Shown: one piece after another, positions 27,189 through 63,379 of the stretch
How the letters are laid out: every line of letters begins with the position of its first letter
How positions within the stretch are numbered: position 1 is the stretch's first letter
NCBI GenBank assembly: GCA_963835535.1
Contig: CAWIFL010000003.1
Coordinates: 162,432-226,431 of the forward strand
DNA length: 64,000 nt
From: an uncultured Gemmatimonadales bacterium
GTDB taxonomy: Bacteria; Gemmatimonadota; Gemmatimonadetes; Gemmatimonadales; JACORV01
Direction: 5' to 3'
Notes under the pieces: model-generated
Told to the model about the DNA's origin: nothing
Database searches by the model: none
What the model saw: only the letters and a program-made list of their open reading frames with translations
Made by a program: the position numbers and the translations under genes

Positions 27189-28556
27189 CTACCTCCCGAT
27201 CGGCTCCAGGCGCGCGGTGAAGTGCGGGAGGACGGGGGCGCGCGAGACGATCCGGAGCCCGCGGATGGTGTCGCGGCAGGCGAGGATCTTCGCGCAGACG
27301 TCTACCACGTAGTCGAGGTGCGCGTCGGTGTACACCCGGCGGGGCACCGCGAGGCGCACCAGCTCCAGCTCCGGCCAGGTCCACTGCCCCGTCGCCTCGT
27401 CCGGCGTGCCGAACATCAGGCCGCCGATCTCCACGCCGCGGATCCCGCCCTCGAGATAGAGCGCGCAGGTGAGCGCCTGGGCCGGGAACGCGGACTGCGG
27501 GACGTGGGGGAGGAAGCGGCGCGCGTCGAGGAACACCGCGTGGCCGCCGATGGGCAGCACGATCGGGACGCCCGCGGCGACCAGGCGCTCGCCGAAGCGC
27601 CGCACCTGCCCGACCCGGTGCGCCAGGTAGCGCTCCTCCAGCACCTCCTCCAGGCCGATCGCGATCGCCGCGAGGTCGCGGCCGGCGAGCCCGCCGTAGG
27701 TCGTGAACCCCTCGATCAGGATCAGCATGTTGGAGAGCCGGGTCGCCAGCGCGTCGTCGTTGGTCGCGATGAAGCCGCCGATGTTGACGAGCCCGTCCTT
27801 CTTGGCGGACATCGTGCAGCCGTCGCCCAGCGTGAAGAAGGCGCGCGCGATCTCCTCGACGGACATCGCCGCGCACCCGCTCTCGCGGATCTTGCAGAAG
27901 TAGGCGTTCTCGGCGAAGCGGCAGGCGTCGAAGAAGAGCGGGATGCCGTGGCGCCGGCACCACTCCGAGGTCGCGCGGGCGTTGGCGAGCGAGACCGGCT
28001 GCCCGCCCCCCGAGTTGTTGGTGATCGTCAGCATCACCAGCGGGACGCGCTCCTTCCCGACCTCCGCCAGCACGCGGTCGAGCTTGGCGAGGTCCATGTT
28101 CCCCTTGAACGGGTGCTCGCGAATCGGGTCGTAGGCCTCGTCGATCACGCAGTCCACGGCCACGCCGAGGTTGTGCTCGACGTTGGCGCGGGTGGTGTCG
28201 AAGTGGATGTTGTTCGGCACCCGGTCACCGGGCTTGAGGACCGTGGTGAAGAGGAGGTTCTCCGCCACCCGCCCCTGGTGGGTCGGGATGATGTGGCGGT
28301 AGGTCGTGATGCGCCGGACGACGCGCTCGAGGTCGAAGTAGTTCCGGCTCCCCGCGTACGCCTCGTCGCCGAGCATCATCCCCGACCACTGGCGGTCGGA
28401 CATCGCCGAGGTGCCCGAGTCGGTGAGCAGATCGATCGTGACCAGGGAGGCCGGCACGTTGAAGAGGTTGTAGCCGGCGTCGGCCAGGGCCGTCGCGCGC
28501 TGCTCGCGCGTGGTGACCGGGATGGGCTCGACGACCTTGATCTTGTACGGTTCCAT
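27189..28556 (-). CDS. tryptophanase / tyrosine phenol-lyase family (beta-eliminating lyase)
   Basis: MEPYKIKVVEPI..., DLLTDSGT and the PLP-lysine motif SAKKDGLVNIGGF. Substrate cannot be decided by eye. Confidence 0.85.
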   Translation of the reverse strand: MEPYKIKVVEPIPVTTREQRATALADAGYNLFNVPASLVTIDLLTDSGTSAMSDRQWSGMMLGDEAYAGSRNYFDLERVVRRITTYRHIIPTHQGRVAENLLFTTVLKPGDRVPNNIHFDTTRANVEHNLGVAVDCVIDEAYDPIREHPFKGNMDLAKLDRVLAEVGKERVPLVMLTITNNSGGGQPVSLANARATSEWCRRHGIPLFFDACRFAENAYFCKIRESGCAAMSVEEIARAFFTLGDGCTMSAKKDGLVNIGGFIATNDDALATRLSNMLILIEGFTTYGGLAGRDLAAIAIGLEEVLEERYLAHRVGQVRRFGERLVAAGVPIVLPIGGHAVFLDARRFLPHVPQSAFPAQALTCALYLEGGIRGVEIGGLMFGTPDEATGQWTWPELELVRLAVPRRVYTDAHLDYVVDVCAKILACRDTIRGLRIVSRAPVLPHFTARLEPIGR

Positions 28557-32520: not shown

Positions 32521-32531
32521 GCGCTACCGCC

Positions 32532-32798
32532 TCACGAGAGTTTGGCTTCCATCCGCCGCGCGATCACCTCGGCGCGGCGCCGCAGCGCGGGGTGCTCCTC
32601 CCAGGCGAGGTAGTCCCGCAGGACCTGGACCGCCTCGACCCCGGGATGCCCGCTCAAATACCCCAACGCCGCCAGGCGGCGCAAGGGCCGCGGCGAAAAC
32701 AGCGCGGAACGCCACCGCCCCATCGAGCGCTGCGCCAGGAGCGCGCCCCCGAGGAAGCCCACGGCCGTGGCCACGACGAAGAAGAACGGCTTCCTCAT
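32532..32798 (-). CDS. small membrane-anchored protein (88 aa)
   Basis: Internal start MRKPFFFVVATAVGFLGGALLA. ATGA overlap with the recR stop. Confidence 0.4.
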   Translation of the reverse strand: MRKPFFFVVATAVGFLGGALLAQRSMGRWRSALFSPRPLRRLAALGYLSGHPGVEAVQVLRDYLAWEEHPALRRRAEVIARRMEAKLS

Positions 32799-58997: not shown

Positions 58998-59028
58998 GGG
59001 GGGGGGGGCTGGGGGGCTGGGGGGCTGG
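58998..59028 (+). other. G-rich tract (G11-CT-G6-CT-G6-CT-GG), potential G-quadruplex
   Basis: Read directly from the sequence. Confidence 0.6.
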
Positions 59029-59120
59029 CCGTCGCTCCTACGTCCTCGCTGTACGTCGGACGGCAGTGCCGAGTGCCACCGCGGTACGTCGGCGGTCGTT
59101 GTGCGATCCCGGAGGATCCA

Positions 59121-59405
59121 ATGCCTTTCCTGCTCGCTGGCCTGGCGCTTCTCACGCCGCGACTCGCGGTCGCCCTTCTCTGGTTCCTCAGCCACTGGTT
59201 TGACGGCGTCTTCTCCGCGCCGTTGTGGCCGATTCTCGGCTTCCTCTTTCTGCCCACGACGCTGCTCTGGTACACGGCCGTCCACCACTGGTTCGGCGGC
59301 GCGTGGTCGTTCTGGCCCATCGTGGGCCTCGTGGTGGCGCTCACGATCGATCTGTCCCCGGCCCGCGAGCACCGCCGGTTCAGGGGCCGCCGGGCGGGGG
59401 ACTGA
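59121..59405 (+). CDS. small membrane protein (94 aa)
   Basis: Internal start MPFLLAGLALL. Three Trp-rich hydrophobic segments. Confidence 0.5.
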   Translation: MPFLLAGLALLTPRLAVALLWFLSHWFDGVFSAPLWPILGFLFLPTTLLWYTAVHHWFGGAWSFWPIVGLVVALTIDLSPAREHRRFRGRRAGD

Positions 59406-59416
59406 CTCGCGGCAGA

Positions 59417-59722
59417 CTATCGTGCGCTGGGGAGCCTGCGCTTGCGGCCGGCCGGCAGTTTCCGGGCGCCGCGTTCCGCCCGAACGGCCGCGATCCCCGC
59501 CAGCACCCCGGCGACCAGCGCCGCCTGTCCGGCGGCCCTCAGCACCCGGCCTGTCTTCGAGAGGGTCCGCTTGAGCTGGCGTTGCCGGTCCTCCGACTCC
59601 GCCCGCTTCCGGGCTTCCTGCAGCAACCGATCGGCCTCGCGCGCCGCCACCAACGCCCAATCCTTGGCGCGCTCTGCGGCGCGCACCGCCGCACTCATGA
59701 AGTGGTCTGCTCGTCTTCCCAT
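59417..59722 (-). CDS. hypothetical protein with C-terminal TM
   Basis: Helical, charged N-terminus plus AALVAGVLAGIAAV. No family recognised. Confidence 0.3.
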   Translation of the reverse strand: MGRRADHFMSAAVRAAERAKDWALVAAREADRLLQEARKRAESEDRQRQLKRTLSKTGRVLRAAGQAALVAGVLAGIAAVRAERGARKLPAGRKRRLPSAR

Positions 59723-59791
59723 GACTGGTGCCCCTTTCGCTCTGTGTGAGGTCGACTGCGCCCGCCTTCCGTCGCAGGCGCGCCCGTTGGC

Positions 59792-60808
59792 TCAGCCCGA
59801 CGCGCCCCTCCGTCCGCCCACGAACCACGTCCTGACTTCGCCCCTGCCCTCGACCTCGAGCGCGCCGCGCTCCTCGAGCAGGAACGATTCGTCCAGCAGC
59901 TGCCGAGTGCTCTCCGCCACCTGCACGCGCCCCGCCACGCCGTGGGATTCCATCCGGCTGGCGATGATCACCGCGTCGCCCCACACGTCGTAGAGGTACA
60001 TCCGCTTGCCGATGACGCCGGCCACCACCGGCCCGGTAGCGATGCCGATGCGCAGCTGGAGCGCGGAGCCGCCGCGCTCATTGAAGCGGTTCAGCGCGTC
60101 GATCATGTCGAGCGACAGGTGCGCCGCCCGCACCGCATGATCGCCCGATGGCACCGGCACACCCGCGGCGGCCATGTACGAGTTCCCGAGCGTCTTGATC
60201 TTCCTGAGGCCACGCTGCCGGGCGAGGTCGTCGAACGTGGTGAAGATCTCCTCGAGCTGGAGCGCCAGCTGCTCGGGGCCCACCGGCGGCGTCAGCTCCG
60301 CGAATCCCACGATGTCCGCGATCACCACCGTCGCGTCCGCGAAGTGGTCCGCGGTGACGTCCGGGCGTGCCGCCAGCCGCGCCGCGATCGAGTCCGGCGG
60401 CACGTGGAGGGCCAGCCGCTCCGCCACCTTCCGCGCCGCCACGACCTGATCGAACAGCTGCTTCAGCTCGCCATTCTTGCGGCGCACCTCGGCGTACAAC
60501 AGGCGGACCTCGAGCATGTTGTGGACCCGCGTCAACACCTCCGGGACATCGAAAGGCTTGCTGATGAAGTCCTTCGCCCCGGCCTTGAGCGCGCGCAGTT
60601 TGTGCTCCGGCTGGGCCGTGATCACCAGGACCGGCAGGTACCCCTCCTTCTCGACCTCCTTCAGCCCCTCCATCACCTGGAATCCGTCCATGTCGGGCAT
60701 CTGGAGGTCGAGCAGGATCAGGTCGTAGCGATGCGCCTCGTGCAGCGCACACACCGCACGCGGATCCTGCGTCGACGTGACGGACGCATACCCGGCGCCG
60801 CCGAGCAT
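59792..60808 (-). CDS. response-regulator receiver + class III adenylate/guanylate cyclase
   Basis: REC (YDLILLDLQMPDMDG...KPF) plus cyclase domain (ATVVIADIVGFAEL...KTLGNSYMAAAG...GIATGPVVAGVIG...YDVWGDAVIIASRME). The first canonical start, at 60808, omits the in-frame upstream RILVVDDQPANVLLLER (60809-60859). Confidence 0.8.
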   Translation of the reverse strand: MLGGAGYASVTSTQDPRAVCALHEAHRYDLILLDLQMPDMDGFQVMEGLKEVEKEGYLPVLVITAQPEHKLRALKAGAKDFISKPFDVPEVLTRVHNMLEVRLLYAEVRRKNGELKQLFDQVVAARKVAERLALHVPPDSIAARLAARPDVTADHFADATVVIADIVGFAELTPPVGPEQLALQLEEIFTTFDDLARQRGLRKIKTLGNSYMAAAGVPVPSGDHAVRAAHLSLDMIDALNRFNERGGSALQLRIGIATGPVVAGVIGKRMYLYDVWGDAVIIASRMESHGVAGRVQVAESTRQLLDESFLLEERGALEVEGRGEVRTWFVGGRRGASG

Positions 60809-60880
60809 GCGCTCGAGCAGCAGGACGTTGGCCGGCTGGTCGTCGACGACCAGGATCCTGGCCTGAGGATCTCGGTGGGC

Positions 60881-63379
60881 TCAGGCATGCGGGTGCACAC
60901 CCTTCAGCGCCGCGTCCAGGGCTTCCATGAACTCCTTGACCTTGATCGGCTTGGTGAGATACGAGACGAACCCCGCTTCGAGGCCCTTCGCGATATCGCG
61001 TGGCATCGCATTGGCGCTGATGGCGACGACCGGGATGTGCGCGGTCGCCGGGTCGTCGTGCAGGATCTTCAGCGCCTCGAATCCGCTGATGCCGGGCAGG
61101 TTGATGTCCATCAGGATCACTTCCGGCTGATGGGCGTGGGCCAGCTGGATGCCCAGGTTGCCGTCCACCGCGGACAGCAGGCGCATGGTGGGGCGGCGCG
61201 CGATGAGCTGCTCGACCAGCTTCAGATTCGCCGGGTTGTCCTCGACATAGAGCAGCGTGCGCAGCGGCGTGCCGGGTTGCGCCGGCGCCTGGACGACGAC
61301 CGCCGGTGCGGCCGTGATCGCTTCGAGCTTCGGAGCGGCAGCCGCGCCCAGCTCGCACCAGAAGACGCTTCCCACCCCGACGCTGCTCTCCACTCCAAGG
61401 ACCCCACCCATCAGCTCGACCAGTCGCTTGCTCATCACCAGACCGATCCCCGTGCCCTGCTCGGCGCCCCGGTCCTGCCCGAGACGGTTGAACGGCTGGA
61501 ACAGCTGCGCCAGCTTGTCCGGAGGCAAACCCGGCCCGCTGTCCCGCACGTTGATGCGCACCCGGTCCGCCGTGCTGCCCGCGCAATCCAGCAGGACCGT
61601 TCCCCCGGTCTGGTTGTACTTGACCGCGTTCGACAGCAGGTTGATGAGGACCTGCTTCAGTCGCGTCCGATCCGCGGCGACGAAGACCGGGACGTCGAAC
61701 TGCGGGAAGGTCATGCGGATGCCACGGGGCTGGGCCTGCGGCTCGATCATGGCCTGGCATTCGAGGATGACCTCGGCCAGCGACGTCGGCTCCGGCGACA
61801 GCGACAGCCGCCCGGACTCGATCTGCGCCAGATCGAGGATCTCGTTGATCAGCGACAGCAGATACCATCCCGCGCGAAGAATCTCGGCGATGGCCACCTT
61901 CTGGGAGGGAGTCGCCGGCGTGGCGTCGGACTCCATCACCTGGGCGAACCCGAGGATCGCGTTGAGCGGTGAGCGCAGCTCATGACTCATGCTGGACAGG
62001 AACTCCGATTTGGCGAGGTTCGCCTTCTCCGCCACGGACTTCGCGCTCTCCAGCTCGATGTTCTTCTCGCGGAGCTCCCGATCCAGGCGCTTGCGCTCCG
62101 TCACGTCGCGCGCCGCGGCGACCACGCCCTGCAGCTGCCCGTCCCGGTCGTAGAACGTCGTGGCGTTGTAGGACACGACGGTTTCCCTGCCATCCCTGGC
62201 GCGCGCGGTGAGTTCGTAGTTGGTGACGGTCTTCCGGGTCAGCACCAGGGTGATGGCCGTTTCGGCTCGCTCCGGATCGGTGAAGTACTTCTTGAACGGG
62301 GCGCCGATCAGCTCGTCCCGCGTGCACCCGGTGAGCACTTCCATCTGCTTGTTGACATCGGTGATGATGCCGCGCGGATCGGTGGTCATGATCGCGTCGA
62401 TATTGGACTCGATGAGCGAGCGGGTGTAGAACTGCTGGTCGCGCAGCCGCTGATCGAGTTTCTTGCGCTCCTCTTCGATCTGCTTGCGCGCGGTGTTGTC
62501 GGTGCCGATCAGCAGATAGCCGATGATCGCATCCTGCGCGTCGCGCAGCGCCGTCACCGACACGACCGCCGGAAAGCGGCTGCCGTCCTTGCGGATGTAG
62601 GTCAGCTCATAGATGTCCTCGATGCCGCGCGAGGCCTTGAACACCAGCGCCTCGAAGCCCGGCGTGATCGGGGTGCCCAGCTCCACGCTGAGCGCCTTGG
62701 CGCGCGCGATCACTTCCTCCGGATCGGAGATGTCGGCCGGCGTGATCTTGTTCATCACCTCGGCGGCCGTGTAGCCCAGCATCCGCTCGGCGCCGACGTT
62801 GAAGATCTGGATCACGCCCTTGGCGTCCGTGGCGATGCTCGAGAAGTTGGCGCTGTTGAAGATCGCGCTCTGCAACGCGCCCGCCTTGAGCAGCGCTTCC
62901 TCCGCCTGCTTGCGCGCGGTGTTGTCGGTGCCGATCAGCAGATAGCCGATGATCACGTCCTGCGCGTCGCGCAGCGCCGTCACCGACACCACCGCCGGAA
63001 AGCGGCTGCCGTCCTTGCGGATGTAGCTCAGCTCGTAGATGTCCTCGATGCCGCGCGAGGCCTTGAACACCAGCGCCTCGAAGCCCGGCGTGATCGGGGT
63101 GCCCAGCTCGACGCTGAGCGCCTTGGCGCGCGCGATCACTTCCTCCGGATCGGAGATGTCGGCCGGCGTGATCCGGTTCGTCACCTCGGCGGCCGTGTAG
63201 CCCAGCATCCGCTCGGCGCCGACGTTGAAGATCTGGATGACGCCCTTGGCGTCCGTGGCGATGCTCGAGAAGTTGGCGCTGTTGAAGATCGCGCTCTGCA
63301 ACGCGCCCGCCTTGAGCTCCGTGATGCCCTCTCCCGCGCGGCGCGTTCCGGCCCCCGGGGCGACTCGTGCGCTGATCAT
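60881..63379 (-). CDS. hybrid sensor histidine kinase (3 PAS + HisKA + HATPase + REC)
   Basis: H-box SSMSHELRSPLNAI, N/G boxes, C-terminal REC (LLYVEDNPANL...VILMDINLPGISG...TKPI). Two near-identical N-terminal PAS modules. Confidence 0.9.
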   Translation of the reverse strand: MISARVAPGAGTRRAGEGITELKAGALQSAIFNSANFSSIATDAKGVIQIFNVGAERMLGYTAAEVTNRITPADISDPEEVIARAKALSVELGTPITPGFEALVFKASRGIEDIYELSYIRKDGSRFPAVVSVTALRDAQDVIIGYLLIGTDNTARKQAEEALLKAGALQSAIFNSANFSSIATDAKGVIQIFNVGAERMLGYTAAEVMNKITPADISDPEEVIARAKALSVELGTPITPGFEALVFKASRGIEDIYELTYIRKDGSRFPAVVSVTALRDAQDAIIGYLLIGTDNTARKQIEEERKKLDQRLRDQQFYTRSLIESNIDAIMTTDPRGIITDVNKQMEVLTGCTRDELIGAPFKKYFTDPERAETAITLVLTRKTVTNYELTARARDGRETVVSYNATTFYDRDGQLQGVVAAARDVTERKRLDRELREKNIELESAKSVAEKANLAKSEFLSSMSHELRSPLNAILGFAQVMESDATPATPSQKVAIAEILRAGWYLLSLINEILDLAQIESGRLSLSPEPTSLAEVILECQAMIEPQAQPRGIRMTFPQFDVPVFVAADRTRLKQVLINLLSNAVKYNQTGGTVLLDCAGSTADRVRINVRDSGPGLPPDKLAQLFQPFNRLGQDRGAEQGTGIGLVMSKRLVELMGGVLGVESSVGVGSVFWCELGAAAAPKLEAITAAPAVVVQAPAQPGTPLRTLLYVEDNPANLKLVEQLIARRPTMRLLSAVDGNLGIQLAHAHQPEVILMDINLPGISGFEALKILHDDPATAHIPVVAISANAMPRDIAKGLEAGFVSYLTKPIKVKEFMEALDAALKGVHPHA
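62481..63317. repeat. 426-bp tandem duplication inside the kinase gene
   Basis: 62481-62891 and 62907-63317 align base for base, with about ten mismatches counted by eye. Each encodes one PAS module (142-aa period). Confidence 0.9.

Follow-up and report, generated by a model that had tools for sequence, protein, structure and literature searches.

How is a receiver-cyclase made when its receiver domain appears to have no start codon and its reading frame continues, through a single TGA, that of the kinase gene upstream? This question is raised by two adjacent genes on the minus strand of a 64,000-nucleotide stretch of DNA (the window) from the Gemmatimonadales metagenome-assembled genome (MAG) G000. 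Their coordinates are collected in Table 1. The upstream gene encodes a hybrid sensor histidine kinase in which Pfam identifies three PAS domains, HisKA, and HATPase_c, followed by a C-terminal Response_reg domain; exactly this 832-residue product is already on record. Across the junction, the minus strand reads AAG GGT GTG CAC CCG CAT GCC TGA GCC CAC CGA GAT CCT CAG GCC AGG ATC CTG GTC GTC GAC GAC CAG, and its straight-through translation is ...KGVHPHA*AHRDPQARILVVDDQPANVLLLERM.... The stop-to-stop open reading frame (ORF) that follows the TGA (60880..59792) holds both a Response_reg domain (residues 9–119) and a Guanylate_cyc domain (residues 177–354). As the original prediction had it, the TGA at 60883–60881 shares its frame with this ORF, and the ORF list contains no ATG, GTG, or TTG among the 24 codons that precede the ATG at 60808. 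The Pfam alignment likewise bears out the claim that a start at 60808 would delete the β1 strand and the DD pair of the receiver, inasmuch as residue 9 of the ORF already matches profile position 1 of Response_reg.

Table 1 Features of the kinase–cyclase locus, with coordinates in the window
Feature	Position	Strand	Description
Hybrid sensor histidine kinase gene	60881..63379	-	832 aa (ORF, translation, Pfam)
Kinase stop TGA	60881..60883	-	Genuine and conserved; orthologues end ...HA* at the equivalent place
Receiver-class III nucleotide cyclase gene	59792..60888	-	365 aa with the missing C; frame-broken after codon 8 in the window
True cyclase ATG start	60886..60888	-	8-nt overlap with the kinase stop (ATGCCTGA); same start in L101, L201, and orthologues
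Missing-base site	60864..60865	-	Window CTC-AGG; same-strain L201 CTCCAGG (Gln9); closest other strain CTCAAGG (Lys9)
Response_reg receiver, including the RILVVDD β1 strand	60524..60856	-	PF00072, residues 9–119 of the stop-to-stop ORF, E = 4e-27
First in-frame ATG	60806..60808	-	Gene callers' start on the frame-broken assembly; 338-aa product (ORF 59792..60808) without β1/DD
Class III adenylate/guanylate cyclase catalytic domain	59819..60352	-	PF00211, residues 177–354, E = 8e-54

Inspection of the other frames revealed a canonical start codon that the original prediction had not seen. An ATG at 60888–60886 precedes the kinase TGA by 5 nt (CATGCCTGA). It opens the sequence MPEPTEIL (MPEPTEILRPGSW...) in a frame other than that of the receiver in the window, and the frame opened in this way closes about 56 codons further on. 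These first eight residues match the conserved N-terminus of orthologous proteins. With a canonical ATG at this position, the proposed reinitiation at a non-canonical codon becomes unnecessary.

To place this start codon in context, we compared 65 orthologous loci (at least 55% amino acid identity) collected from genome, genome-contig, and metagenome-contig searches, and the junction was read in each of them. Each of the 65 has a canonical start codon in frame with the receiver, and in 56 the Ile of ILVVDD follows exactly 11 codons later. The N-terminus follows the pattern M-x-x-x-x-[DE]-I-L-x-[AG]-[KR]-I-L-[VI]-V-D-D. An ATGNNTGA overlap spans the kinase stop in at least 25 loci, all of them Gemmatimonadales-like and 76–84% identical, and in these the upstream kinase ends ...HA*; in more distant relatives the two genes overlap by ATGA/GTGA or are set apart by a short spacer. 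Wherever the kinase precedes an orthologue, the kinase reading frame stops at the TGA and the cyclase begins from its own ATG in a different frame. These junctions indicate that the TGA is a real, conserved kinase stop and that a fused frame never existed. The comparison of fused and split architectures that had been suggested as a check thus comes down on the side of separate genes: at 25 or more loci, the kinase stop is conserved and the cyclase start overlaps it in a different frame. It contradicts both readthrough or recoding of the TGA to give a fusion protein and a nonsense mutation that split a fusion gene. Nor do orthologues begin at the site corresponding to 60808 and have a naturally truncated receiver, the outcome named in advance as a refutation; their starts lie upstream and their receivers are complete. 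The distance between the ATG and ...GACGACCAG is 53 nt in the window and 54 nt in the orthologue L003, which indicates that the window is one base short between the ATG and the receiver.

The position of that base can be read from an independent assembly. L201, a Logan contig from run ERR10755942, aligns by blastn with positions 61120..59311 of the window; the alignment spans 1,811 nt and is interrupted by a single gap, with no mismatch. Where L201 has GAGATCCTCCAGGCC, the window has GAGATCCTC-AGGCC and so lacks one of two adjacent Cs at codon 9 of the cyclase gene, 16–17 nt downstream of the TGA. The additional C in L201 restores an intact ORF of 365 amino acids; the encoded protein (P0002) begins with MPEPTEILQARILVVDDQ and shows no other difference from the window protein. 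The next closest strain, represented by a JGI metagenome contig (L101) with 98.2% nucleotide identity, carries CTCAAGGCC with Lys9 and is also intact. In the 90%-identity cluster of the 338-residue product, all seven of the seven full-length members have 365 residues and are found on about 25 contigs, and the 338-residue form (P0001) occurs only on the window's own contig of 441,591 nt. Four other Logan contigs from runs ERR10755942 and ERR11523662 are 100% identical to the window elsewhere along its length (over 1,943, 1,546, 1,610, and 1,337 nt), which indicates that both runs contain the same strain.

Since the C is present in an otherwise identical independent contig, we read its absence from the window as a consensus (polishing) indel error of the MAG, an interpretation that is very probably correct. 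The cyclase gene would normally start at ATG 60888, over the kinase TGA and in a frame that differs from that of the kinase. Loss of one C of the CC pair from the consensus, converting CTCCAGG to CTCAGG at 60865/60864, would shift the rest of the cyclase gene, by coincidence, into the kinase frame. The in-frame TGA and the receiver without a start codon would then be two sides of a single base loss. The actual protein almost certainly comprises 365 residues with a complete receiver, as judged from the intact same-strain copy. The original prediction had listed a base-call error among its explanations; it was right in spirit that the sequence is at fault, and it misplaced the fault, in that the TGA is genuine and the missing C, as L201 reveals, lies at 60865/60864.

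An artefact of this kind would be expected to be absent from an independent assembly of the same strain, as is the case for L201, and to be accompanied by other isolated single-base breaks in conserved genes of G000. This MAG consists of 13 contigs, the largest of 941 kb (3.49 Mb; 70% GC; 98.7% completeness), and its relatives are likewise Gemmatimonadales MAGs. When 167 conserved ORFs of a same-genus genome were compared with G000 by tblastn, the screen yielded four candidate breaks, two of them convincing. A gene encoding a CoxS-like [2Fe-2S] small subunit (C8, near 28320) is broken by an extra C relative to the 157-residue relatives listed; the site reads CTGCTGCAAGACG in G000, and the listed relatives encode LLL[K/N/R/A]-x-P-x-PTR in one frame. 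The 15 listed members of the 31-member cluster include no intact copy of the CoxS-like gene from an identical strain; they reach at most 96% identity. A LigT-like gene (C3, near 123230) is also frame-broken in G000. The convincing breaks amount to 2–3 of the 167 conserved ORFs, a modest rate that is little above natural pseudogene levels. The reciprocal screen gave two candidates in the relative G002, which is therefore not a clean control.

Two further candidates from the screen of G000 were set aside. The one at about 32523 in the window proved to be a false positive, because the stop-to-stop ORF extends at its 5′ end across a neighboring gene, and the one at C3:329814 is ambiguous because the query is off-frame. 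A separate case of the same kind of damage was seen in L096, an orthologue in a long-contig MAG that matches the cyclase in three successive frames.

The break in the cyclase gene resembles the indel errors of Nanopore MAGs in several respects. It is an isolated loss of one base in a short C run of a conserved ORF that is otherwise intact; the contigs are very long, further breaks are present, and the break is missing from a separate assembly of this strain. The C run is only 2 bases long in this case, in contrast to a long homopolymer, and the likeness is one of indel pattern. In the intact sequence the CC lies within CCAGG, with GATC to either side, a context in which reads, if they are from Nanopore, might show miscalls linked to base modification. 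Polishing of long-read MAGs with Medaka is meant to reduce indel errors of this type (PMC12313526; PMC9262707). Besides the modest rate of other breaks, a further observation runs counter to an artefact: along the approximately 5.9 kb in which the MAG and the Logan contigs could be uniquely compared, the frame-breaking base is their sole discrepancy, so that the assembly is not grossly error-ridden. Independent coverage of the missing-C site itself comes from one contig, L201; searches with the 101-aa ORF downstream and with a sigma factor added no second one.

The alternative closest to the artefact holds that the deletion is real in the genome from which the MAG derives, as a recent frameshift allele that coexists in the population with the CC allele. 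Such an allele would inactivate the cyclase gene or leave only a receiver-crippled product of 338 residues initiated at ATG 60808. We consider this unlikely. The single-C version stands in the MAG consensus, which is generally reliable given that the remaining assembly matches the independent contigs base for base, and some frameshifted genes do occur in real bacteria; against this, the sole independent same-strain sequence over the site carries the intact allele, and the truncated product is absent elsewhere among the approximately 25 contigs of the 90% cluster. The ORF that follows the break is intact and identical to that of the intact allele, which implies a break that either arose very recently or does not exist, and the same kind of single-base break is found in other conserved genes of G000. 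An extension of this alternative, in which some members of the population really carry the single-C allele and still express the cyclase from it, either as a TGA readthrough fusion or from ATG 60808, is very improbable. If it were correct, the CC/C site would act as a switch between a regulated and an unregulated cyclase; the product initiated at 60808 would be a cyclase with a crippled receiver, and the readthrough product would be a kinase-REC-REC-cyclase resembling cyanobacterial CyaC, which combines sensor, kinase, receiver, and cyclase in a single polypeptide.

The existence of CyaC also lends some appeal to functional recoding, by which the window sequence would be decoded as it stands through readthrough of the TGA, a -1 shift near codons 8–9, or initiation at ATC or CTG in the receiver frame; indeed, TGA and receiver do share a frame in this assembly. 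The in-frame arrangement of kinase and cyclase, however, recurs in no orthologue; at all loci with the kinase upstream, the cyclase differs in frame and has its own ATG. In all 65 relatives, a single frame runs from the N-terminus into the receiver, leaving no conserved -1 shift, and the sequence ATG CCT GAG CCC ACC GAG ATC CTC AGG contains no slippery heptamer of the form X XXY YYZ. An Rfam search of positions 60500–61200 returned no match at E ≤ 1 for a SECIS or frameshift element. Finally, the identical strain represented by L201 needs no recoding to produce a full-length cyclase. Taken together, these observations render recoding barely credible, and a consensus error at codon 9 remains our preferred reading.

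With the C restored, the locus is an ordinary two-gene module, with the gene for a receiver-adenylate/guanylate cyclase placed downstream of that for a hybrid PAS histidine kinase. The translation of the cyclase gene shows the motifs RILVVDD and LLDLQMPDMDG, and it carries both the acidic pair of the receiver and the Guanylate_cyc domain. The best matches of the catalytic domain in the PDB are adenylate cyclases (8sl3, 7pd4, 4p2f, and 1yk9). The protein resembles receiver-regulated class III adenylate cyclases in that the receiver lies directly N-terminal to the catalytic domain (PF00072 and PF00211) and a kinase is encoded by a linked gene. Presumably, the kinase phosphorylates the receiver of the cyclase and thereby controls cNMP synthesis. 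The arrangement differs from that of CyaC, a single polypeptide; at this locus, the kinase and the receiver-cyclase have a gene each, the second of which starts over the conserved stop of the first and is normally read in a different frame. The organization of the junction is reminiscent of coupled stop/start gene pairs, with the cyclase ATG overlapping the kinase TGA in an arrangement that has been kept in at least 25 Gemmatimonadales-like loci, and it suggests that translation of the two genes may be coupled through the 8-nt ATGCCTGA overlap.

Within Gemmatimonadales, the conserved kinase/receiver-cyclase pair joined by an 8-nt ATGNNTGA overlap forms a tidy two-component module, probably for cAMP (or cGMP), that holds little surprise. 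The public annotation of G000 carries the cyclase as a protein of 338 residues that lacks the β1 strand and the acidic pair of the receiver. The locus also illustrates a more general caution, namely that the loss of a base near the 5′ end of a gene with an overlapping start can mimic a recoding signal. The module is flanked upstream by a gene for an AI-2E-family transporter and downstream, on the other strand, by a gene for a small GAF-domain protein.

The C missing from the receiver-cyclase gene of the window falls, in the intact allele, within CCAGG, an instance of the Dcm-type motif CCWGG (window 60861-60870), and GATC motifs flank the site on either side at a distance of a few bases. One may speculate from these motifs that DNA modification led to a basecalling error, which is a possible cause of the missing C.

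Two genes outside the window in the same Gemmatimonadales MAG are also frame-broken. The gene for a CoxS/CutS-like [2Fe-2S] small subunit, on contig C8 at about 28318-28330, reads CTGCTGCAAGACG, whereas all 157-aa relatives listed encode ...HALLL-x-x-P-x-PTR... in a single frame; the break is consistent with one extra C. On contig C3 at about 123154-123240, a LigT-like gene (2'-5' RNA ligase with HxTx motifs) is spread over two frames relative to its same-genus orthologue. A candidate break within the window (32523-32653), raised by the tblastn screen of conserved ORFs from a same-genus genome, was a false positive in which the "upstream part" is the off-frame shadow of a neighboring gene; the roadblock/LC7 gene has a normal start at ATG 32520. 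In another long-contig MAG, the receiver-cyclase orthologue (contig CAVTHV010000026.1; L096:3430-4496) aligned across three successive frames covering residues 6-116, 113-249, and 251-359, which implies two frame breaks within one gene.

The kinase gene carries a tandem duplicate of a 426-nt unit whose copies are 97% identical and encode two near-identical 142-aa PAS units in the N-terminal part of the protein. Kinase relatives in the 90% cluster occur in two sizes, 832 and 690 amino acids, and this difference of 142 amino acids suggests that the copy number of the PAS unit varies between strains.

Features of the kinase-cyclase region
Feature	Window	Strand	Remark
GAF-domain protein, 198 aa	58058-58654	+	PF01590, E = 4e-13
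C-rich stretch	59007-59065		CCCCAG-like units
101-aa ORF	59420-59722	-	directly after cyclase gene
Tandem duplicate of 426-nt unit	62480-63317	-	inside kinase gene

Comparison of the 101-aa ORF with Pfam gave no match. The GAF-domain protein, encoded ~1.1 kb downstream of the cyclase gene on the opposite strand, could be an effector of the cyclic nucleotide. Several indels separate the C-rich stretch from its counterpart in L101, a metagenome contig of a 98%-identical strain: a 6-nt unit, a 1-nt change in the length of a C-run, and a 1-nt gap. The stretch is immediately followed by a GC-rich hairpin, GGGGGCCGTC...GACGGCCCCC.
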